Shown: positions 5,984-50,385, numbered from the stretch's first letter. The stretch is DNA of 57,816 nt from Candidatus Brennerbacteria bacterium (GCA_043799565.1 JAZDNP010000004.1:1-57816), one strand, 5' to 3'. Notes: generated from the sequence alone by a model not told the origin. A program made the numbers and translations.

Positions 5984-6265
5984 ATGTTTTACACGTACGT
6001 TTTGCTATGTGAAGACAGCGCGCGAGGTCGGCGAAAACTTTATGTCGGTTCGACCGATGATTTACACGCCCGTCTCCGAGAACATGAATCGGGGAATGTG
6101 AAAACTACAAAAAGCTTTAGCAAGGTATCGTTAGTGTATTATGAGGCATGCAGGAACAAAAAGGACGCAAAAAAGCGGGAGCTGCAGTTGAAAACAGGCT
6201 TTGGAAGGGGTTACATTAAGAAGCGGATAGAAAGTGACTTAGATAAAGAAGCGGCCATGGTTTAG
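5984..6265 (+). CDS. small GIY-YIG nuclease family protein (93 aa)
   Basis: FYTYVLLC...KLYVGSTDDLHARLREH...YYEAC...KRELQLK pattern (GIY / YIG / Arg / Glu). The last 5 codons overlap the tRNA-Gly 5' end. Confidence 0.85.
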   Translation: MFYTYVLLCEDSARGRRKLYVGSTDDLHARLREHESGNVKTTKSFSKVSLVYYEACRNKKDAKKRELQLKTGFGRGYIKKRIESDLDKEAAMV

Positions 6266-6321: not shown

Positions 6322-6375
6322 CAAAGCAAAAACTACCAGAAAGGGTACTATAATTAATTATAGTACCCTTTCTGG

Positions 6376-7554
6376 TTACGATATCCTAACCTTTACGAAT
6401 TTTTTCTTCCCTATCTTTAATATGTCGCCATCCCGAATCTCTATCTTTGGGTCGCGTGCCGTTTCACCATTTCGCTTAATTGCACTTTGTGAGAAGAGGC
6501 GTACGGCTTCACTGTTGGAACCCACGCCGGCTGCACGGACGGCCTCCAAGAGTGTCGCACCCTGTTTCACCTTTACCGTATCAACATTGTTCGGCGTTTC
6601 TTTTTTTGAGAACGTTCGTATCCACTCCTCGCGTGCCTTCGCGGCGGCTTTCTGATTGTGATAAAGCTTCACCACTTCGTACGCGAGCGAAAGCTTCGCG
6701 TCGCGCGGATTGCCGTCCCGCTCCATCATTTTTTCAATGTCTTCTATCGCCATCTCGGTGCAAAATTCTGCAACTGGCCTGATTCCTTCATCGGGGAGCG
6801 CCATCAATTTACCGAACATATCATTTGGCTTGTCGTCCAAGCTGATGAGCCCACCCTCACTCTTGTTCATAAGTTTCTTTCCCGTCCTCGGATTTTCCAA
6901 AAGCTTGGTAGTGACAACGAATTTTTCCTTGTTTTTGTATTCACGGAGGAGCTTGCGTCCGGCGAGCATATTGAAGGTTTGGTCGGTGCCGCCAATTTCC
7001 ACGTCCACGTCAAGCGCGACGGAATCGTACCCTTGCATCAAGGGATATAGGAATTCGTGGAGACCGATGGGCTTATCGTTTCTTTTTCTCTCTTGGAACA
7101 TGTCCCGCTCCACCATTTGCTGCTCGGTGAAGTGTGAAGCGAGTTCAATAAGTTTCTCAAACGTCATCTTCGCGTGCCATTTGGAGTTGAATGCGAGTTT
7201 TGCGGCGTTGGTCCCCGAAAAGTTAATTATTTTCGCTGCCTGCTTTTTAAACGTCTTGAGGTTTTGCTTTACCTCGCTTGCGGTGAGCGGCTTGCGTGCC
7301 GCAAGTTTGTCGGTAGGGTCGCCGATGCGTGCGGTGAAGTCGCCGATGAGGAGAATAACTTTATGTCCAAGCGCCTGGAATCTCCGGAGCACGAGAAGGT
7401 TTGTCGCGTGGCCCAAGTGGAGGTGGGGGCCGGTCGGGTCCACACCGAGGTAGACAGTCAGTTTTTTTCCCGACGAGAGCGCTTTTTCAAACGCCTCGCG
7501 CGAAGGGTATATGGTATCAACCGAACGAGTCAGAAGATTGTTGAGCGCGTCCAT
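6376..7554 (-). CDS. tyrS: tyrosyl-tRNA synthetase
   Basis: HLHLGH (HIGH) and KMNKS (KMSKS) motifs. GDFTARIGDPTDK. C-terminal S4-like region. Start trimmed to the ATG at 7554, because the track start at 7584 is TTG. Confidence 0.85.
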   Translation of the reverse strand: MDALNNLLTRSVDTIYPSREAFEKALSSGKKLTVYLGVDPTGPHLHLGHATNLLVLRRFQALGHKVILLIGDFTARIGDPTDKLAARKPLTASEVKQNLKTFKKQAAKIINFSGTNAAKLAFNSKWHAKMTFEKLIELASHFTEQQMVERDMFQERKRNDKPIGLHEFLYPLMQGYDSVALDVDVEIGGTDQTFNMLAGRKLLREYKNKEKFVVTTKLLENPRTGKKLMNKSEGGLISLDDKPNDMFGKLMALPDEGIRPVAEFCTEMAIEDIEKMMERDGNPRDAKLSLAYEVVKLYHNQKAAAKAREEWIRTFSKKETPNNVDTVKVKQGATLLEAVRAAGVGSNSEAVRLFSQSAIKRNGETARDPKIEIRDGDILKIGKKKFVKVRIS

Positions 7555-18011: not shown

Positions 18012-18136
18012 ATGAATCCCGTTAGAAACAACCAAATTTAATGGTTATGCATACCGAAAAACACCTCCGATTGTTTCTAAAGGTCTCGTGTAACATACAC
18101 GGTCGCCTGCAGGCGACCTGTTTCTAACGGGATGAA
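18012..18136 (+). mobile_element. ORF-less mini copy (125 bp) of the ATGAATCCCGTTAGA...TCTAACGGGATGAA element, ending on the pilM start codon
   Basis: 15-bp perfect inverted repeat ATCCCGTTAGAAACA (18016-18030) / TGTTTCTAACGGGAT (18119-18133). ATGAA at both ends. Internal palindrome GGTCGCCTGCAGGCGACC. Confidence 0.8.
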
Positions 18137-19244
18137 TCTCGGTTTTGTTAAGGATTTTTTCACCGACATCAGGAATTTCTTCTCCTTCGGGCGCGTACTC
18201 GGAGTGGATATTGGCACGGTGTCCATAAAACTCGTGGAACTCGCGCGGAAAGGGGATGTCGTTTCTCTCGAGAATTACGGCATGGTTACCTCTAAGGAAT
18301 ACCTGAAGCGTCCGAATGCAGTCGTCCAATCGAGCTCGCTCAAACTCTCCGCGCGCGATGCCGCCCCACTTCTCAAAACATTGGTGGACGAAGTAAAGCC
18401 GAAAGCGAAGAAGGTCATCGCCTCCGTGCCCGCGTTCGCGTCGTTCGCGGTGCCGATAGAAATGCCGCTTATGAGCCGTGAGGATACCGAGAAGTCCATC
18501 GGGTTCCAGGCGCAGCGCTTTATCCCTATGCCGGTCACCGAAGTTTCATTTGAATGGGAAAAGGTGGGGGAATACGAAAGTGCGGAAGGACGGAAGTTCC
18601 AGCGCATTCTCCTTGTTGCGGTACCGAACGAGATCGTGAAGACCTATCGCGAACTTTTTCACGCGGCGGGACTCACCCTTTCCGCATTGGAGGTGGAACA
18701 TACGGCGCTCGCGCGTGCAATAACCTCGCCGTCCTCGCGCCACACGATGCTCGTGGATATCGGGGCCGAATCCACCTCCATCATAGTTACGGAAGGAACG
18801 ACGGTGCGTGCGGTGGGACAGGCGGACTACGGTGCGGTCACTTTAACCCAAGCGCTCGCGCGAAATCTTGGGGTGTCCGAAACGCGTGCGGAAGAGCTGA
18901 AGAAGCGGCGAGGTCTCATGGTGGGTGAGGGAGAATACGAGTTATCCACCTCACTTCTTCCTTTTTTGGATGTTATAATACGAGAGTGCGAAAGGGTGCG
19001 CGCAAGTTATGAGCGCACGTTTGCTCACCCAATCGAGCGTTTCACATTGGTCGGCGGCGGCGCAAATCTGCTCGGCATTGAGCGGTACTTTGCGGAAGCG
19101 CTCGGCATTTCACATGAGCCGGCGCGCCCATTTTCCAAGGTGAGATATGACGCCGGGTTGGAGCCCGCGATGAGGACCTTGAATCACGACCTTGCGGTTG
19201 CAACCGGGCTCGCTTTGAAGGTCTACCTAACCCCTCAACTATGA
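18132..19244 (+). CDS. pilM: type IV pilus assembly protein PilM (actin-like ATPase fold)
   Basis: VLGVDIGTVSIKLVEL N-terminus. 370 aa. First gene of the pilMNO block. Confidence 0.8.
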   Translation: MNLGFVKDFFTDIRNFFSFGRVLGVDIGTVSIKLVELARKGDVVSLENYGMVTSKEYLKRPNAVVQSSSLKLSARDAAPLLKTLVDEVKPKAKKVIASVPAFASFAVPIEMPLMSREDTEKSIGFQAQRFIPMPVTEVSFEWEKVGEYESAEGRKFQRILLVAVPNEIVKTYRELFHAAGLTLSALEVEHTALARAITSPSSRHTMLVDIGAESTSIIVTEGTTVRAVGQADYGAVTLTQALARNLGVSETRAEELKKRRGLMVGEGEYELSTSLLPFLDVIIRECERVRASYERTFAHPIERFTLVGGGANLLGIERYFAEALGISHEPARPFSKVRYDAGLEPAMRTLNHDLAVATGLALKVYLTPQL

Positions 19245-22437: not shown

Positions 22438-23508
22438 ATGGATTATCCAAGCAAGCTCAACGAATTACTTCTCATAACCGCGCGGCAAGGCGCGTCGGAC
22501 CTCCACATCGCGGTTGGGCGGAAACCCACCATCCGCGTGGACAGCGTTTTGGTGCCTTTGGAGAAAGAGCCCATTCTTACCAAAGAAGATGCGGAGGGAT
22601 TAGTGAACGCACTGCTTACTCCCGAGCAGAAGGACAAATTTTCCAAACTGAAACAACTGGACTTCTCGTTCAATTATGAGGACAAGGCGCGCTTCCGGGT
22701 GAACGTGTATCTCCAGCGCGGTTTTCTCGCGGCGGCGCTACGTCTCATCCCCGCACAGATACGCACCGTGGATGAGTTGAATCTCCCCCCGCTTCTCCAT
22801 GATTTTTCGAAACTCCATCAAGGATTTGTGCTCGTGGTGGGTCCGGCGGGGCATGGGAAGTCCACCACGCTCGCGGGAATATGCGATGAGGTCAACCACA
22901 CGCGTACCGAGCACATCATCACGGTGGAAGACCCTATAGAATATCTTTTCTCGCAGGACCGTTGCATTATCTCTCAACGTGAAGTGGGGAGTGACGCCGT
23001 GTCGTTCCACGAGGCGCTCCGCGCGGTCCTTCGGCAGGACCCGGGCGTTATCATGATCGGTGAAATGCGCGACCCCGAGACCATCGCCACTGCGATGACC
23101 GCGGCGGAAACGGGACACTTGGTTTTTTCCACGCTCCACACAAATTCCGCTTCGCAGACAATTGACCGCATCATCGACAGTTTTCCTCCGGAACAACAGG
23201 GCCAGGTGGTGTCTCAGCTCGCCTCCACGCTCGTGGGTATTATTTCCCAGCGTTTGGTGCCGCGGATTGGCGGCGGCAGAATGCCCGCGGCAGAGATCAT
23301 GCTTACCAACTCGGCGATCCGGAACCTTATCAGGGAGCGGAAAATCTACCAAATTGACCTCGTGATAGAAACCAGCGTGCAGGAAGGGATGATTTCCCTG
23401 AACCGCTCGCTTGTGAATCTGTTGAAACGGAAGGAAATATCACTTGAAGCGGCGGAATCGTTCTCACTGAATCCCGCTGAACTCCGCATTTTACTTGAAA
23501 GGACGTGA
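22438..23508 (+). CDS. pilT: twitching motility / retraction ATPase PilT
   Basis: 356 aa. ASDLHI, Walker A GPAGHGKST, GEMRD, TGHLVFSTLHTN. Confidence 0.9.
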   Translation: MDYPSKLNELLLITARQGASDLHIAVGRKPTIRVDSVLVPLEKEPILTKEDAEGLVNALLTPEQKDKFSKLKQLDFSFNYEDKARFRVNVYLQRGFLAAALRLIPAQIRTVDELNLPPLLHDFSKLHQGFVLVVGPAGHGKSTTLAGICDEVNHTRTEHIITVEDPIEYLFSQDRCIISQREVGSDAVSFHEALRAVLRQDPGVIMIGEMRDPETIATAMTAAETGHLVFSTLHTNSASQTIDRIIDSFPPEQQGQVVSQLASTLVGIISQRLVPRIGGGRMPAAEIMLTNSAIRNLIRERKIYQIDLVIETSVQEGMISLNRSLVNLLKRKEISLEAAESFSLNPAELRILLERT

Positions 23509-23512
23509 GGTC

Positions 23513-23797
23513 ATGAATCCCGTTAGAGACAACAAAACTTATTATGTTTACGTCTTGCGTAGCACTAAAGATAAACGCTGGTATACTGGACTTACCGATG
23601 ACCTACGGAAGCGCTTCAAGGAACACAATGCCGGACATGTTGGGTGGACAAACGGACGTGGCCCATTCGAGCTCATCTACTACGAAATGTGTAAAAACAT
23701 CACTGATGCAAGGTCGCGAGAGAAGTATTTCAAATCAGGCATGGGCAAGCGCTACTTGAAGAATCGCTTGAAGCGCTTCCTGTCTCTAACGGGATGA
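23513..23797 (+). CDS. GIY-YIG nuclease family protein (94 aa)
   Basis: MNPVRDNKTYYVYVLRS...RWYTGLTDDLRKRFKEH...YYEMC...REKYFK. Start ATG lies in the left arm. Stop TGA overlaps the pilC ATG (ATGA). The track start at 23495 overlaps pilT and is rejected. Confidence 0.85.
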   Translation: MNPVRDNKTYYVYVLRSTKDKRWYTGLTDDLRKRFKEHNAGHVGWTNGRGPFELIYYEMCKNITDARSREKYFKSGMGKRYLKNRLKRFLSLTG

Positions 23798-23798
23798 A
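23513..23798 (+). mobile_element. autonomous-looking copy (286 bp) of the inverted-repeat element, carrying a GIY-YIG ORF, inserted exactly at the pilC start codon
   Basis: 15-bp perfect inverted repeat ATCCCGTTAGAGACA (23517-23531) / TGTCTCTAACGGGAT (23781-23795). ATGAA at both ends. Confidence 0.85.
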
Positions 23799-24999
23799 GT
23801 TCAACTATAAGGCACGTACCGCACAAGGCGAACTCCAGGTGGGAGACGTGGAATCGTCATCGCGCGAAGCGGCGGTGAATATCCTTCTCACGCACGGCCT
23901 CTACGTTTTGACCATTGAGCCGGTGAAGGAGGACAAGTGGTGGAACCGCATTACGGATTTCTTCGAGCGCGTGAAGGTCGCGGACCTTATGATATTCACC
24001 CGGCAGTTCGCGACCTTGATTGCTTCGCAGGTGCCTATCGGCGACTCGCTCCGCTCGCTCTACGAACAGATCACGAAGCCGGTCCTGAAAGAGGTCATTG
24101 CGGAGGTCACTTCCGACATTGAATCGGGTTTCTCGCTTTCGCAGGCGCTCGCGCGGCACCCCGGCGTATTCAACGAATTTTATGTGAATATGGTGAAGTC
24201 CGCCGAAGTCACCGGCCGCCTCTCCGAAGTGCTGGACTTCCTTGCGGACTATCAGGAGAAACAATCCATCCTCATCGGGAAACTGCGGAACGCATTGGTC
24301 TACCCCGCGTTCGTCGTCGGGCTTTTCGTGCTCGTCGTCATCATCATGGTCACCATGGTGCTTCCGCAAATTGCCCCTATTTTTGCAGAAGTATCGGTGG
24401 ACCTCCCATTTTTCACGCGTGTTCTTCTTGCGACGGGTACTTTTATGTCCAACTATTGGTGGGTACTCCTTATTCTCATCGGAGTGCTCGTGGCGCTGGT
24501 CATTGACTACCTTCAAACCACGGAAGGAAAGGCGGTAGTGAACGAAGTGAGTTTGAGAATTCCGTTCGTGGGGAAACTACTCCAAAAGGTTTATATTGCG
24601 CGTTTTGCGGAGTCCGCGCGGGTACTCATTAAGGGAGGTCTTACCATCCCACAAGCGATAGAAATCTCCTCGCATACCATAGGAAACTATGTGTACGAGG
24701 ATATTTTGCACGAAGTGGCACAATCCATCCGGAAAGGGCTCCTTCTTTCGCAGGCCCTGAAAGGCGCTCCCTATTTCCCGCCTTTGGTCTACCAACTGGT
24801 TTCGGTGGGCGAATCCACCGGCAGATTGGAATCAATGTTGGAGCGTGTATCCGCGTTCTACAACCGTCAGGTGGACGACACGGTATCCAATTTGGTGGAG
24901 CTCATTCAGCCCGCGCTCCTTGTGGTCATCGGGCTTATGGTTGCAGGGCTCTTTGCCGCGATACTTTTGCCTCTCTACAACCTTACGAAAGCGTTCTGA
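23794..24999 (+). CDS. pilC: type IV pilus platform protein PilC (GspF family)
   Basis: 401 aa, two GspF-type repeats, three TM segments. Follows pilB and pilT. Confidence 0.9.
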   Translation: MKFNYKARTAQGELQVGDVESSSREAAVNILLTHGLYVLTIEPVKEDKWWNRITDFFERVKVADLMIFTRQFATLIASQVPIGDSLRSLYEQITKPVLKEVIAEVTSDIESGFSLSQALARHPGVFNEFYVNMVKSAEVTGRLSEVLDFLADYQEKQSILIGKLRNALVYPAFVVGLFVLVVIIMVTMVLPQIAPIFAEVSVDLPFFTRVLLATGTFMSNYWWVLLILIGVLVALVIDYLQTTEGKAVVNEVSLRIPFVGKLLQKVYIARFAESARVLIKGGLTIPQAIEISSHTIGNYVYEDILHEVAQSIRKGLLLSQALKGAPYFPPLVYQLVSVGESTGRLESMLERVSAFYNRQVDDTVSNLVELIQPALLVVIGLMVAGLFAAILLPLYNLTKAF

Positions 25000-34678: not shown

Positions 34679-34974
34679 TTGCGGGGGCGGGAATTGAACC
34701 CGCTGCCTTCTGGTTATGCATCTCGCTACGGCTTTCGCCGCCTCCGACATAAAGTCGTGAGTTTGCGGTCTGGACTATACCTTCACCCCTAAGGGTGCTC
34801 GCCGTCTAGTCTCTACACCTTGTCGCGCGAGGCGACCTTGGCTCGGTATTACCATTTCTCGAATTGAAAAGAAGGCTTCACCGAGTTTGACGAGTGTTCC
34901 ATGAATCCTTTCGGAATCATGAGCCCAAATTGAGCCAGGCGTGCAACCGTTACACTTCCCCGCGGAAAAAGTAT
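34679..34974 (-). tRNA. initiator tRNA-fMet(CAT) interrupted by a 224-nt group I intron in the anticodon loop
   Basis: Exon 1 (34974-34943): CGCGGGGAAGTGTAACGGTTGCACGCCTGGCT. Exon 2 (34718-34679): CATAACCAGAAGGCAGCGGGTTCAATTCCCGCCCCCGCAA. C1:A72 mismatch and A73 as in bacterial initiator tRNA. The spliced loop would be CTCATAA. Confidence 0.85.
34719..34942 (-). ncRNA. group I intron (IC3-like, no ORF)
   Basis: The 5' exon ends in U and the intron ends in G. P2 is CATGATTCC-GAAA-GGATTCATG. Core strings CCGAGCCAAGG and AAGGTGTAGAGACTAGACGG...CCTTAGG...GGTATAG closely resemble the Azoarcus tRNA-Ile intron core as I recall it. Confidence 0.85.
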
Positions 34975-42083: not shown

Positions 42084-42197
42084 ATGAATCCCGTTAGAAA
42101 TTGTGGTGCTATTCATCCTATACGCATGAACTATTCAATACTATATCCTGCGAACATCAAGCAGTCGAGCATGCCCTACTATTTCTAACGGGATGAA
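42084..42197 (+). mobile_element. ORF-less mini copy (114 bp) of the inverted-repeat element, ending on the cca start codon
   Basis: 14-bp perfect inverted repeat ATCCCGTTAGAAAT (42088-42101) / ATTTCTAACGGGAT (42181-42194). ATGAA at both ends. Confidence 0.8.
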
Positions 42198-43647
42198 GTT
42201 CAATGTTCCGAAGGAAGTGAAGACCGTTTCGGAAACGCTCCAAAAGAATGGCCACCAGGCGTATCTGGTGGGCGGGTGCCTGCGTGATCTTCTCCTTAAG
42301 CGTGAACCGAAGGACTGGGATATCGCGACGGACGCGCGTCCCGAGGAGATCCAGAAATTATTCCCGGAGAGCGTCTACGAGAACACGTTCGGCACCGTGG
42401 GTGTGAAGACGGAATCCGACGACCAGAAGCTCAAAGTGGTGGAAGTAACGACGTTCCGCATTGAAGGCCACTACACCGACCTTCGCCACCCCGATGAGGT
42501 GAAGTTCGCGAAAACGATAGATGAGGACCTCTCCCGTCGCGATTTTACGGTGAATGCAATCGCCGCGAACCTGGAAGGCGAGCTCACAGATCCGCACGAA
42601 GGTGCCGCGGACCTCAAGGCGAAGCTCATCCGCGCGGTGGGGGACCCCAAAAGGCGTTTTGAAGAGGATGCGCTCCGGCTCATGCGCGCGGTACGGCTCG
42701 CGGCGGAGCTTGGGTTTGAGATGGAGAAAAATACGAAAGAAGCCATAGCCCACCACGCCGGTCTTCTTGAAGCCATCGCAAAGGAGCGCATCCGTGATGA
42801 GTTCGTGAAATTGATAGAGAGCCCGCGTGCGGCGGAAGGTGTTGTCGCGATGGAAGACCTCGGACTCCTAAAGTTCGTTGTTCCCGAACTCCGCGAAGGA
42901 ATTGGGTGTGGCCAGAACAAGCATCATATCTACACCGTCTTTGACCACAATGTGCGTGCTTTGAATTATGCGGCGGAGAAGGAATACTCGTTTGAGGTTC
43001 GCCTCGCCTCGCTCCTTCATGACGTGGGAAAGCCGAAAACAAAGCACGGCGACGGGCCCGACTCCACCTTCTATAACCACGAGGTCGTTGGTGCGAAGAT
43101 GGCGGCAATTATCATGGACCGTTTGCGGTTCGGGAAGGATGTCACGGAACGTGTGGTGCACCTCGTGCGGCATCACCTTTTCTACTACAACGTGGGCGAG
43201 GTTTCGGAGGCGGGTGTGCGCCGCTTCATCGCGCGTGTGGGGCCGGGATACATCGGTGACCTCCTGAAGGTTCGCGAGGGAGACCGTATTGGTTCCGGCG
43301 TGCCGAAGGCATTCCCGTACAAACTTCGCCATCTCCTCTTTATGATGGAGAAGGTGAAGAAGGACCCCATTCATCCCAAGATGTTGGCGCTCAAAGGCGA
43401 TGACGTTATGAAGATTCTCGGCATCCCCGCGGGTCCTAAGATCGGCAAGATCCTCGGAGTGCTTTTAGAGGAGGTGTTGGATGACCCGAAGCGGAACACC
43501 CGCGGATATTTGGAACCGCGCGTGCGGGAGCTTGCGAACCTGAAAGATGATGAATTGGAAACGCTTGCCCGCGCGGCACGAGAGAAAAAAGAGGAATTTG
43601 AGAGTGGAGTGGAGGATGAGATGAAAAGGAGATACTACGTGAAATGA
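42193..43647 (+). CDS. cca: CCA-adding enzyme (tRNA nucleotidyltransferase with HD domain)
   Basis: YLVGGCLRDLLLKREPKDWDIAT head domain. HDVGK HD motif. 484 aa. Confidence 0.88.
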   Translation: MKFNVPKEVKTVSETLQKNGHQAYLVGGCLRDLLLKREPKDWDIATDARPEEIQKLFPESVYENTFGTVGVKTESDDQKLKVVEVTTFRIEGHYTDLRHPDEVKFAKTIDEDLSRRDFTVNAIAANLEGELTDPHEGAADLKAKLIRAVGDPKRRFEEDALRLMRAVRLAAELGFEMEKNTKEAIAHHAGLLEAIAKERIRDEFVKLIESPRAAEGVVAMEDLGLLKFVVPELREGIGCGQNKHHIYTVFDHNVRALNYAAEKEYSFEVRLASLLHDVGKPKTKHGDGPDSTFYNHEVVGAKMAAIIMDRLRFGKDVTERVVHLVRHHLFYYNVGEVSEAGVRRFIARVGPGYIGDLLKVREGDRIGSGVPKAFPYKLRHLLFMMEKVKKDPIHPKMLALKGDDVMKILGIPAGPKIGKILGVLLEEVLDDPKRNTRGYLEPRVRELANLKDDELETLARAAREKKEEFESGVEDEMKRRYYVK

Positions 43648-47999: not shown

Positions 48000-48020
48000 A
48001 ACCCCAATAAATGGGGTTTT
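47998..48020. terminator. bidirectional hairpin terminator between rplU and recR
   Basis: AAAACCCCA-ATAA-ATGGGGTTTT. Confidence 0.65.
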
Positions 48021-48618
48021 AGTTTCTCCCATCCAACGCACTCCCTAATGTTTCCTCGTCCGCGAACTCTATCTCGCCTCCCGTGGGGATACCCCTCCCC
48101 AAACGCGATATTCTAGTCGCTTTGCTCTTAAATCCTTCTGTGATGAGGCCTGCCACGAAGTCGCCGAAGGTCGTGGGGTTGAGTGCGAGTATCAATTCGT
48201 CCACCTTCCCGCCGAGCTCGGCGTCAATGCGCTTCATGAGCGTCGCAAGGCGGAGCTTGTGTGCGGTTTCCAATATTCCCCGCTCGGGAAGCTCGCCGAA
48301 GACAAGATAGTGACCCTTGAAACGCCCGGTGCGCTCCAGAGAAAGAACGTCGGTATCCTTTTCCACCACCGCGATGGTCTTCGCATTTCTTCCGGGCGCG
48401 GAACAAATGGCGCACGCTTTTTCTCGGCGTTCCTTGAGGAAAAAACAGCGCGGGCATCGGTCCAAGTCCTTGAGCCCCGAAAGTCCTGTAACAAGAGTTT
48501 CAAACGTGCTTTTGTCCAATCCCACCATATGGAACGCGAGGCGCGTTGCGGTACGCGGCCCGAAAGAAGGAAGTTTTTCGAATGCTGCAACGAATTTTTG
48601 TATCGCGTCCGGGATCAT
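48019..48618 (-). CDS. recR: recombination protein RecR
   Basis: HhH N-terminus FGPRTATRLAFH. Zn finger CPRC...CAIC. Toprim domain. Confidence 0.9.
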   Translation of the reverse strand: MIPDAIQKFVAAFEKLPSFGPRTATRLAFHMVGLDKSTFETLVTGLSGLKDLDRCPRCFFLKERREKACAICSAPGRNAKTIAVVEKDTDVLSLERTGRFKGHYLVFGELPERGILETAHKLRLATLMKRIDAELGGKVDELILALNPTTFGDFVAGLITEGFKSKATRISRLGRGIPTGGEIEFADEETLGSALDGRN

Positions 48619-48622
48619 AAAA

Positions 48623-48654
48623 TAGGCATTAGGCGCTAGGCATTAGGCGTTAGC
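48623..48654. repeat. left arm of inverted heptad-repeat array (TAGGCAT TAGGCGC TAGGCAT TAGGCGT TAGC)
   Basis: Tandem 7-nt units. 27/32 positions are complementary to the right arm at 49007-49038. Confidence 0.75.
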
Positions 48655-49001
48655 TGAGAAATCATGGTATTCAGCATTCTCATAACTCCGTCTAATAACA
48701 ATGAAACTTTGGCACAGTTTTCTTCATTTACCAAGCCGAGTTTCTTTGAGGCCTCAAGTTGAGTTTCTAATTCTCCCCCTGAACCAAACGCAATGAGGAG
48801 AAACTTGCGCAACTCCTTGTCTGAACCCCTTAGTTTTCCCTCGGCGATATTAGAGGGAATTGAAATTGCCGCTCGTCTCATCTGTGAAGTGAGTCCGTAC
48901 AGCTCCTCCTTGGGAAATTTTTCTGTGAGTTTGTACATTTCAACGGTGAGCGTTACTCCTTTCTGCCATACGGTAAGATCCCGGTAAGTATGGGTTTTCA
49001 T
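48636..49001 (-). CDS. four-helix-bundle protein (23S rRNA intervening-sequence protein family)
   Basis: YRDLTVWQKG...FPKEELYGLTSQMRRAAISIPSNIAEG...F...A.GS..ELETQL, a pattern typical of the family. Confidence 0.85.
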   Translation of the reverse strand: MKTHTYRDLTVWQKGVTLTVEMYKLTEKFPKEELYGLTSQMRRAAISIPSNIAEGKLRGSDKELRKFLLIAFGSGGELETQLEASKKLGLVNEENCAKVSLLLDGVMRMLNTMISQLTPNA

Positions 49002-49006
49002 GTTGT

Positions 49007-49038
49007 GCTAATGCCTAGAGCCTAACGCCTAGTGCCTA
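49007..49038. repeat. right arm of inverted heptad-repeat array (GCTAATGCC TAGAGCC TAACGCC TAGTGCC TA)
   Basis: Reverse complement TAGGCACTAGGCGTTAGGCTCTAGGCATTAGC aligns with the left arm. It contains the dnaB stop codon. Confidence 0.75.
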
Positions 49039-50385
49039 CTCTTCTATGTGGCGCGTATCCACATTTTTGAAGCTCACCTTCTCCTGGTCAAAGTGAAGTT
49101 CCACGGAACCCAAAGGACCGTTCCGGTGTTTTGCGATAATGATCTCTACGCGATTTTGGTCCTCCGCCGGCACGTCACCTCGTTCGCGGTCCTTACGGTA
49201 TATAAAGAGCACCACGTCCGCATCCTGCTCGAGCGAGCCGGATTCGCGGAGGTCGGAAAGGCGGGGAATCTTTACCTCACGCTGGTCAACGGCGCGCGAG
49301 AGCTGGGAAACCGCGATGACGGGAATAGAAAGTTCTCGCGCGAGCGCTTTCAGTCCGTGCGATATCTCGGTCACTTGAGTCACCATATTGTCCGAATTGG
49401 TGCGCGACTGGACGAGTTGGAGATAGTCCACAATGACGAGATCCAACCCGTGCTCTATTTGGAGCCGCCGCGCCATGGAACGCATCTGGAGCACGGTAGG
49501 GGATGCCGAGTCGTCAATGAAAAGTTTTGCTTTGGAAAGCTCGTCCAATGCTTGCTGTACCAGTGCGAATTCAAGGTCGTCGGTGAGTTTGCCGGTACGG
49601 AGGCGCCAGAGCGGAATCTGTGCCTGGCTTGCGATAAGCCGGTCCACGATCTGGTCCTTAGACATCTCGAGCGAAAAAATACCGACGGATTTTCCTTGGA
49701 GCGCGACGTGTCGCGCAACGTCCAATGCAAGCGTGGTTTTTCCGTATGAGGGCCGTGCCCCCACAATTATAAGGTCGGAGCGTTGAAGGCCTGAAAGAAT
49801 ATTGTCCAGTCCTGTGAATCCTGTGGGGATGCCTCGGTAACCTCCATGTTCGCCGCGGTGGAGCTTTTCCAGTCGTTCATAGGCACCGGGGAGTTCGCTT
49901 TGCACGGGAATGAATTTCTGCGGCCGCGAGCGCTCCGAAATGCCGAACACCTTTGATTCCACCTTGTCCAAAAGTGTTTCAAAATCATCGGAATCCAGCG
50001 AGAGCTCGTTGATAATGGACGATGCTTCAATAAGGTCGCGGCGCACGCGTTTTTCTTTCACCATTTCCGCATAGTGTTCCACGTGCGCGGCGGTTGGTAC
50101 TTTCTCCACAAGCTCGGTCAAGTAGTCCGCGCCTCCCACCTCCTGCACGAACTTTTTATCTTTGAGGTCGTGAGAGACGGTGAGAAGATCGATGGGCTTG
50201 CCGCGTTCAAAAAGCCCTAAGATGCTCGCATAGATTTTTTGGTGTCCCGGATGGTAAAAGTCCTCGGGCGAAAGCGAATCCGCGATTTTTACTATCGCGG
50301 TTTTGTCCAACATCAATGCGCCGAGTACCGAGCGTTCGGCTTCAAGATCTTGCGGAGGAAGTTTTATTCTTTTTTCCGGTGGCAT
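49036..50385 (-). CDS. dnaB: replicative DNA helicase DnaB
   Basis: PPQDLEAERSVLGALML N-terminus. Walker A GARPSYGKTT. 449 aa. Confidence 0.92.
   Translation of the reverse strand: MPPEKRIKLPPQDLEAERSVLGALMLDKTAIVKIADSLSPEDFYHPGHQKIYASILGLFERGKPIDLLTVSHDLKDKKFVQEVGGADYLTELVEKVPTAAHVEHYAEMVKEKRVRRDLIEASSIINELSLDSDDFETLLDKVESKVFGISERSRPQKFIPVQSELPGAYERLEKLHRGEHGGYRGIPTGFTGLDNILSGLQRSDLIIVGARPSYGKTTLALDVARHVALQGKSVGIFSLEMSKDQIVDRLIASQAQIPLWRLRTGKLTDDLEFALVQQALDELSKAKLFIDDSASPTVLQMRSMARRLQIEHGLDLVIVDYLQLVQSRTNSDNMVTQVTEISHGLKALARELSIPVIAVSQLSRAVDQREVKIPRLSDLRESGSLEQDADVVLFIYRKDRERGDVPAEDQNRVEIIIAKHRNGPLGSVELHFDQEKVSFKNVDTRHIEE

Follow-up and report, generated by a model that had tools for sequence, protein, structure and literature searches.

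Organization of the locus

The DNA analysed here is a stretch of 57,816 nt from Candidatus Brennerbacteria bacterium (GCA_043799565.1 JAZDNP010000004.1:1-57816), hereafter the window, with positions counted from its first letter. A unit of 286 bp (23513-23798), termed E2, separates the stop of a pilT-like gene from a pilC-like gene. The upstream host gene encodes a pilT-like ATPase (22438-23508, + strand; T2SSE, 79% identity to the orthologue in a distant relative, L133), and its ORF (open reading frame) ends with TGA at 23506-23508. The downstream host gene, on whose start codon the insert sits, encodes a pilC-like platform protein (23794-24999, + strand), assigned by T2SSF and by its orthologues. 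The pilC start at 23794 is confirmed because the orthologues begin MKF(N/D)YKART at the same codon; an exact-sequence look-up of the window PilC returned no identical protein on record.

E2 is a full-length element, the entire insert being spanned by an ORF (23513-23797, + strand) for a 94-aa single-domain GIY-YIG nuclease (MNPVRD...RFLSLTG). The protein matches PF01541 GIY-YIG (E=1.8e-16), its sole Pfam domain, and has no extra DNA-binding domain. The left ATGAA (23513-23517, + strand) provides the nuclease start codon and represents either a target copy or a recognition flank. The right ATGAA (23794-23798, + strand), rebuilt at the right end of E2, provides the pilC start codon, in agreement with the orthologue starts. 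The nuclease stop TGA (23795-23797) overlaps the pilC ATG (23794).

The two ends of E2 form helix 1. Its 5' arm, ATCCCGTTAGAGACA (23517-23531, + strand), encodes codons 2-7 of the nuclease, and its 3' arm, TGTCTCTAACGGGAT (23781-23795, + strand), encodes the final nuclease codons and includes the AT of the pilC ATG. The arms are complementary at 15/15 positions, pair in the predicted fold and do not extend beyond 15 bp. A second helix is formed by a 5' strand in the LRKRFK codons (23607-23620, + strand) and a 3' strand in the LKRFL codons (23767-23780, + strand) which abuts the 3' arm of helix 1. Helix 2 is complementary at 14/14 positions, is present in the minimum free energy (MFE) and centroid folds and is supported by covariation; together the helices make a coaxial stack of about 29 bp in both folds.

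An original prediction, made from the sequence alone, had described the 15-bp perfect inverted repeat, the 94-aa GIY-YIG ORF with arm-encoded ends, the ATGAA at both ends and the overlap of the TGA stop with the pilC ATG, and the complementarity, the PF01541 match and the coordinates bear out each of them. Its statement that the insert takes over the host start and provides a coupled one anew holds, as far as the sequence is concerned, for all full-length copies, translation of the two genes being presumably coupled. The only good ribosome-binding site of the junction was said to precede the left ATG; this is plausible but not informative, since the use of Shine-Dalgarno (SD) sequences looks weak in these genomes. 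The candidate site lies in the final pilT codons, with AGGA about 9 nt before the left ATG and GAGG merely 2 nt before it. A rough check found no SD-like motif at about 76% of control ORF starts in these genomes, and because most genes at these loci lack one, the SD spacing before the left ATG is uninformative.

ORF-less copies in the window

At up to 3 mismatches the arm sequence occurs at six sites in the window, compared with 1.1 expected, and none of 100 shuffles reached six. The six sites form three pairs, E1, E2 and E3, all of which adjoin a start codon. E1 (18012-18131, + strand; 120 bp) is a short element on the pilM start codon, identified by its arm pair and fold. Its arms lie at 18016-18030 and 18119-18133 and its ends read ATGAATCCCGTTAGAAACA...TGTTTCTAACGGGATGAAT; a helix-2 hairpin is formed by 18101-18107 with 18112-18118, and a degenerate internal arm is present at 18072-18086. 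The right end of E1 lies on the ATG of its downstream host pilM (18132-19244; PilM_2, E=7e-36). E3 (42084-42192, + strand; 109 bp), likewise a short element recognized by arm pair and fold, has its arms at 42088-42101 and 42181-42194 and ends ATGAATCCCGTTAGAAAT...ATTTCTAACGGGATGAAG. It sits on the start codon of a gene of the CCA-adding/poly(A) polymerase family (42193-43647; PolyA_pol/HD, CCA-adding type).

Both E1 and E3 are too short to hold the nuclease ORF. Their RNA folds beat shuffles (z=-6.3 for E1 and z=-4.0 for E3), and RNA and DNA folds of either strand are equally significant, so that the folds do not discriminate between them. A scan of Rfam at gathering thresholds gave no family at E1, E2 or E3, and an E-value scan of E1 gave noise only. 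Two of the three window copies lie inside a type IV pilus/competence cluster, at comF|pilM (E1) and pilT|pilC (E2).

Filled and empty sites in relatives

The pilT-pilC junctions of relatives were compared, as the original prediction had suggested, and the two closest by PilC identity are empty, reading spacer-ATGAAATTT. At 90% PilC identity (L140/L146) the junction consists of TAA, 47 nt and then ATGAAATTTGAC; at 86% (L141/L142, Ca. Brennerbacteria) it consists of TAA, 23 nt and then ATGAAATTTAAT. The junction of a relative with 51% PilC identity (L134) is also empty, and that of L133 (67%) holds a GIY element whose nuclease is 77% identical to that of E2, with PilT 79% identical. The relatives thus do not always carry the gene, as one of the refuting conditions set by the original prediction would have required. 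The 90% relative L146 is also without E1 at the pilM site, and in the 90% relative the motifs CCCGTTAG and CTAACGGG are absent throughout 20 kb.

The nearest nuclease homologues with context are found at other loci, after def (P0002, 84%) and between SHOCT and DsrE genes (P0004, 82%). Further sites are flippase|glycosyltransferase, MurJ-like|Bac_transf and MreD-like|PBP2. The homologues at these unrelated junctions all share the DNA termini and a stop codon which overlaps the ATG of the next gene. E2 is an inserted element and not a conserved host gene.

The same junction is occupied by other cassettes in further relatives. In L143/L144 (PilC 78%) it holds an ORF for a PF05635 protein, the protein of 23S rRNA intervening sequences (IVS), between long inverted repeats of ACGAC/ACAAC type (1028-1500), and in L145 (PilC 77%) it holds a PDDEXK_3 ORF between GATGCGAATATACGAAT inverted repeats (1057-1500). 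The pilT-pilC junction is a hot spot at which three unrelated small ORFs, each enclosed by repeats, are found.

A related arrangement occurs elsewhere in the window, at 48623-49038, where a 121-aa ORF (48636-49001, - strand) resembles 23S rRNA intervening-sequence proteins of the PF05635 type (tblastn E=8.5e-12 with the L143 PF05635 protein). It lies between recR (48019-48618) and dnaB (49036-50385) and is bracketed by 24-nt inverted repeats, 92% complementary, which are built of TAGGCATTAGGCG units. It represents another type of cassette in which a single ORF inside an operon is enclosed by repeats.

Distribution of the element family

A genome collection was scanned with the 14-mer ATGAATCCCGTTAG; at least 120 stretches matched, and all census counts are among the matches listed. 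An element was defined as a left end paired with CTAACGGGATG within 700 bp. At least 96 paired elements were recovered. Most of these 96 are 33-136 bp long (34 measure 120-129 bp and most others 33-119 bp), and nine span 260-290 bp, of which seven have an intact nuclease ORF, one (L113) is pseudogenised and one (L065) is decayed. In 85 of the 96 elements the right-end ATG opens an ORF that is 80 aa or longer or that runs off the contig, and the downstream proteins start with MK (60) or MN (33). Position +4 is A in 100% and position +5 is A in 96% of the elements, neither position being constrained by the pattern. The left ATGA contains the TGA of the upstream gene in 17 elements, and a co-directional ORF is located no more than 7 nt upstream of about 40 elements. 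Flank logos showed no target preference beyond ATGA(A). Motif pairs elsewhere are thus linked to start codons (3/3 in the window, 85/96 in the scan), contrary to what would have refuted the original prediction.

The hosts of paired copies belong to many lineages of Patescibacteria, including Paceibacteria groups, Saccharibacteria, Levyibacteriota, Kerfeldbacteria and Moranbacteria, and paired copies were also found in Planctomycetota and Omnitrophota. Unpaired matches come partly from unrelated taxa, where they appear chance-like, and partly from metagenome-assembled genomes (MAGs) of Patescibacteria, in which the right end was missed by the pattern. A scan of viral contigs gave 60 matches, of which only five are real paired elements; these are short and lie on four IMG/VR contigs (L162, L176, L190, L200).

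Short elements of 47-110 bp in L060, L077, L107, L126 and L127 and in the four viral contigs make up a subfamily; its hosts are Omnitrophota, Planctomycetota and the IMG/VR contigs. Its members have an SD-like sequence in the region of the 3' arm, 8 nt before the rebuilt ATG. The full SD AAGGAGGT is present in L126, L176 and L200, and weaker variants in the other copies.

Variant copies with altered flanks were also observed. One (L147 1852-1970) has ATGG on both sides and lies at the start of def, which the gene caller began inside the element. Another (L151 1394-1497) has a CCCCG...CGGGG core followed by a GTG start, and the third (L145 2766-2875) is intergenic with no adjoining called start. 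The family therefore extends beyond the 14-mer with which the scan was made.

Structure and covariation of the stem

The core of the stem, TCCCGTTAGA...TCTAACGGGA, is invariant, and the inner part covaries: at positions 12-14 four Watson-Crick pair types occur and mismatches are few. Pairing of helices 1 and 2 reaches 95.5% in 10 full-length copies, compared with at most 45% for slid partners. Helix 1 is paired at 98.7% in 10 elements with two compensatory pairs, and helix 2 has four compensatory pairs, several at synonymous sites. Six pairs across both helices are compensatory, and none of 500 shuffles reached the observed score. The pseudogenised copy L113 retains both helices. Among 1344 pairs, the stem mismatches comprise nine G:T and seven A:C, a low tolerance of wobble which leans against a typical RNA helix.

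The element contains a nucleic-acid stem under structural constraint. Of the terminal inverted repeats (TIRs) described in the original prediction, the complementarity of the arms stands; the covariation and the second helix indicate, however, that the ends act as one folded stem and not as two protein-binding TIRs.

The nuclease protein

A total of 3540 homologues of the nuclease were found at E<=1e-3, and those with names in the best 120 come mostly from Patescibacteria MAGs. Among the best 120 of the 3540, 95 are exactly 94 aa long, 100 start with MNPVR or MSPVR, and 97 end with LSLTG. Residues Y11, Y13, Y24, G26, R32, H38, E58, E70 and N84 are invariant among 24 homologues, as expected of a GIY-YIG protein, and the termini are likewise invariant. 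Residues 6 and 91 covary as required by base pairing (D-S 63, N-F 3, G-P 2, A-A 2 in the same best 120); at the DNA level L002 has GAGGCA/TGCCTC where the window has GAGACA/TGTCTC. An AlphaFold2 model (pLDDT 87) shows the order beta-beta-alpha-beta-alpha-alpha, with residues 1-9 unstructured; the nucleic acid therefore offers a better explanation of their conservation than the protein does. Synonymous differences have reached saturation outside the helices (proportion of synonymous differences, pS, 0.53-0.95; proportion of nonsynonymous differences, pN, 0.11-0.33). The nuclease protein is under purifying selection.

Sequence and fold place the nuclease nearest to the UPF0213/Slx1-like branch. 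A profile search of the PDB gave 1zg2 (UPF0213 BH0048; E=5.3e-10), 1ywl (2.1e-5) and Slx1 7wme (1.9e-3), and Foldseek ranked 1zg2 before Slx1 (7cq2, 6seh; TMq 0.61-0.64), with I-TevI and UvrC at E of about 1. The TIGR01453 score was 21.7 bits against a cutoff of 56. A tblastn search of a plasmid collection gave six weak matches; those with annotation are of the UPF0213/YazA type or a generic 'GIY-YIG nuclease family protein', the best annotated match being B. subtilis yazA.

Two further GIY-YIG genes were noted. The window contains a divergent 93-aa ORF (5984-6265, + strand; about 40% identity to the E2 nuclease) between tRNA-Leu and tRNA-Gly, the end of which overlaps the tRNA-Gly gene; no canonical termini and no convincing flanking repeat were found at this ORF. 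The other, a 98-aa gene with other termini (L147 1187-1483), is located 1 kb from a canonical element on the same contig, and single genomes can thus carry several GIY-YIG subfamilies.

Signs of mobility

Tandem copies sharing ATGA occur in L106, L025, L020 and L028, and hairpin modules TCCCGTTAGA...TCTAACGGGA are nested, without ATG, within other copies in L041, L049, L103 and L061. The smallest hairpin copy measures 33 nt (L034). Short copies keep ACGGAAA...TTTCC, a leftover of helix 2 of the coding element. Hairpin elements have been gained and lost at start codons, and the family comprises a coding parent and ORF-less derivatives.

With respect to orientation, three flipped copies stand against 47 forward ones. 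In a 125-bp copy (L040), in L105 and in L118 the interior is inverted relative to the flanking ATGA...GAA, with AGG and the helix-2 hairpin beside the left arm, which points to an insertion in the opposite orientation or to an inversion between the arms. The idea that orientation is set solely by the direction of replication was rejected, as L017 has two opposite copies 5.5 kb apart.

Other features of the window

A perfect palindrome of 21+21 nt with no spacer (ACCAGAAAGGGTACTATAATT/AATTATAGTACCCTTTCTGGT) is located at 6335-6376, just downstream of tRNA-Gly. A match to the Rfam group I intron was found at 34755-34942 (- strand), with 50.2 bits against a gathering score of 50.

Proposed mechanism and alternative explanations

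The Ssn nucleases, typified by SsnA of Neisseria meningitidis, are single-domain 94-aa GIY-YIG proteins (CDD cd10448) whose genes are flanked by hairpin repeats (NTS/SRM) that are also present as hundreds of orphan copies (PMC11893778, 2025). SsnA binds the hairpin in single-stranded DNA (ssDNA) only, cuts just upstream of it and requires specific flanking nucleotides; it ignores the reverse strand, double-stranded DNA and RNA, and accepts a hairpin built from two molecules (PMC11893778). Its authors point out the insertion-sequence-like layout and draw a parallel to REP/RAYT (PMC11893778).

E2 is probably a full-length member of a family of insertion elements bounded by hairpins; this family is widespread in Patescibacteria, has subfamilies in Planctomycetota and Omnitrophota, and would be mobilised in the following manner. 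The stem would be bordered by single-stranded flanks, ATGA on the 5' side and GAA on the 3' side, and the loop of full-length copies would be the nuclease gene. By analogy with Ssn, the nuclease may bind the stem folded in ssDNA, during replication or DNA uptake, and may cut within the conserved 5' ATGA flank, after which host repair or ligation would finish copying or excision. Copies are located at the (A)TGAA of start codons, where the last A of the stem and TGAA rebuild ATGAA, so that the host start is kept. The nuclease of full-length copies is read from the original start, and the overlap of its TGA with the rebuilt ATG would allow termination-reinitiation, because of which full-length copies would stay neutral. 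Selection would keep only insertions at start codons, which would be harmless there since the start is rebuilt. The family is apparently large and undescribed in the ultra-small bacteria of the candidate phyla radiation (CPR/Patescibacteria). It is proposed more tentatively that it constitutes an undescribed class, an autonomous single-strand hairpin transposon whose sole protein is the 94-aa GIY-YIG nuclease in the loop, a start-codon specialist which rebuilds the ATG(A) overlap and in some lineages brings an SD. Such a class might lie behind thousands of genes annotated 'GIY-YIG nuclease family protein' and behind ORF-less hairpins in Patescibacteria, Planctomycetota and Omnitrophota.

Several points weigh against a mobile hairpin element of this kind. 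The search patterns included the left-end ATG and the right-end GGATG. A GIY-YIG hydrolase is incapable of strand transfer, and integration therefore needs a host step. The boundaries of E2 are ambiguous, as a 4-bp TGAA duplication, a 2-bp GA duplication and element-carried recognition flanks all fit. The SRM consensus of the Ssn system, HGTCWYN(0-2)YYVSBRHN(0-5)WNVSBRGN(0-2)RNCYNB, gave 0 matches on both strands of the window (0.35 in shuffles). The similar rarity of G:T and A:C mismatches means that the sequence does not settle which strand folds, nor whether as RNA or DNA. The identity of the L133 nuclease (77%) is close to that of its PilT (79%), and long vertical persistence is therefore possible.

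Persistence of this kind also enters into an explanation by domestication, in which the hairpins of an Ssn-like system would be host-useful tags and the nuclease a host enzyme for ssDNA restriction or recombination control, for example of transformation at tagged genes, with elements no longer actively mobile. SsnA/NTS modulates natural transformation in Neisseria (PMC11893778), the type IV pilus/competence cluster holds two of the three window copies, the nuclease is under strong purifying selection, and the element persists at pilT-pilC in the relative with 67% PilC identity. Domestication is nevertheless considered unlikely: at two sites the 86-90% relatives differ in whether the element is present, the occurrence of copies that are tandem, nested, flipped or decayed, and of a pseudogenised nuclease, resembles the dynamics of a parasite, and a role as tag gives no reason for the exact position on start codons. 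The stem could instead operate in mRNA, as a processing site of the RNase III type (compare the 23S IVS and Correia elements) or by masking and unmasking the start downstream, with the nuclease as a passenger, similar to a homing endonuclease, in a translationally neutral hairpin. All copies are co-oriented and presumably co-transcribed with the downstream gene, the coaxial stack of about 29 bp appears in RNA folds, the right end has stops in two frames with first-ATG ORFs ending at TAA (-4) or TGA (+4) in 39 of 96 elements, one subfamily has the perfect SD AAGGAGGT 8 nt before the rebuilt ATG, and in relatives the same junction holds 23S-IVS-protein cassettes flanked by long inverted repeats. 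Against this, G:U is tolerated no more than A:C (9 versus 7 in 1344 pairs), a pattern uncommon in an RNA helix under selection, there are flipped copies as well as nested ones that have no ATG, RNA function alone leaves the spread to new sites unexplained, the closest characterised enzymes do not act on RNA, and no Rfam family was matched; an RNA-level device is rated as quite improbable.

Classical mobile DNA would be either a free-standing homing endonuclease gene cutting a double-stranded site or a cut-and-paste TIR transposon with duplex-bound ends. The inverted repeats with a short direct repeat recall the latter, and the small GIY-YIG ORF inserted between conserved genes recalls the former, the seg genes of phage T4 being of this type. 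The 94 aa include no DNA-binding domain, however, and the occupied sites, at many unrelated loci, have only (A)TGAA in common. The fold is closer to Slx1/UPF0213 than to I-TevI, and covariation of non-conserved stem positions and an internal helix are unexpected for recognition of duplex TIRs; both forms are regarded as highly improbable. That E2 is an ordinary conserved gene of the pilus operon, its inverted repeat being due to chance, can practically be dismissed. An intact ORF, with synteny in one distant relative (L133), speaks for it, but the junctions of the closest relatives are empty, the same termini occur at unrelated loci and in ORF-less copies, and chance is opposed by the shuffles of arm counts (0/100) and helices (0/500).

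If the nuclease does mobilise the hairpins, the driving enzyme of this transposable element would be a minimal hydrolytic GIY-YIG protein, and occupying and re-creating a start codon would be a new route to harmlessness for selfish DNA. The family explains many small 'GIY-YIG nuclease' and 'excinuclease ABC subunit C' annotations in CPR genomes as well as mis-called starts of adjoining genes, such as def in L147. It would also carry biology of the Ssn type into a major uncultured radiation, where the hairpin specificity is new, a point of practical value for ssDNA tools. In the Saccharibacteria, which are naturally competent and genetically tractable, a connection between hairpin repeats and DNA uptake can be put to the test.

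Comparison with known systems

The UPF0213 (YhbQ-YazA) proteins, the nearest to the E2 nuclease in sequence and fold, are single-copy proteins of unknown function and are not known to be bounded by repeats. Slx1 resembles the nuclease in fold and differs in having a RING/zinc domain and the partner Slx4. Free-standing GIY-YIG homing endonuclease genes (phage T4 seg, I-TevI) are, like E2, small ORFs wedged between host genes with the neighbours undisrupted; unlike E2, they have a DNA-binding domain, one cognate site, no terminal stem and no ORF-less derivatives. The E2 protein has only 94 aa, and the occupied sites share ATGAA alone. The 23S rRNA IVS cassettes (PF05635 ORF in a long stem) resemble E2 in placing a single small ORF within an inverted repeat; such cassettes are found at the pilT-pilC junction in L143 and at the recR-dnaB junction in the window. 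They differ in their unrelated protein family, long imperfect repeats and known role, excision from rRNA by RNase III.

Bacterial MITEs (miniature inverted-repeat transposable elements) and palindromic repeats (Correia/NEMIS, ERIC, RPE) resemble the E2 family in being multicopy hairpins of 50-150 bp co-transcribed with their neighbours, and they also include internal-deletion derivatives of a coding parent. The E2 family shows terminal inverted repeats, multiple copies and empty sites in relatives, as MITEs do. Its direct repeat, (A)TGAA, fits a duplication of 2, 4 or 5 bp or element-borne flanks, and its sole encoded protein is a GIY-YIG hydrolase. The parents of MITEs, in contrast, are DDE transposases or not known, their targets are TA or unspecific, and rebuilding of start codons is unreported for them; a large survey of MITEs makes no mention of Patescibacteria or GIY-YIG (PMC11602168). 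REP/BIME-RAYT and IS200/IS605 elements share with the E2 family a definition by hairpins, a specific short tetra- or pentanucleotide as flank, a large number of ORF-less hairpins for each enzyme gene and a single-strand logic. They employ a covalent HUH Y1 tyrosine transposase and two subterminal hairpins, whereas E2 encodes PF01541 only, a hydrolytic GIY-YIG enzyme, and has one terminal stem on a start codon.

The closest likeness in organization is to Ssn. Both have a 94-aa single-domain GIY-YIG protein, which in E2 likewise lacks an extra DNA-binding domain, a hairpin-bracketed gene, many orphan hairpins per genome, a directional motif, conserved single-stranded flanks and the core TCCCG...CGGGA. 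The original prediction had held that no mobile class of this kind was described; this needs qualification, since Ssn is a related class, and it stands in so far as the motif and geometry differ and no link of Ssn to start codons has been reported. The Ssn paper mentions neither Patescibacteria nor start codons (PMC11893778), and the literature searched did not describe the element and contained no account of a gene inside a hairpin or of a position on start codons. The Ssn gene is placed between two complete hairpins; that of the E2 family lies inside one hairpin, flanked by the two arms of a single stem which overlap its own start and stop codons. The E2 family further differs from the published Ssn systems in its patescibacterial hosts, in hairpins that sit on start codons, and in its documented insertion polymorphism and deletion derivatives.

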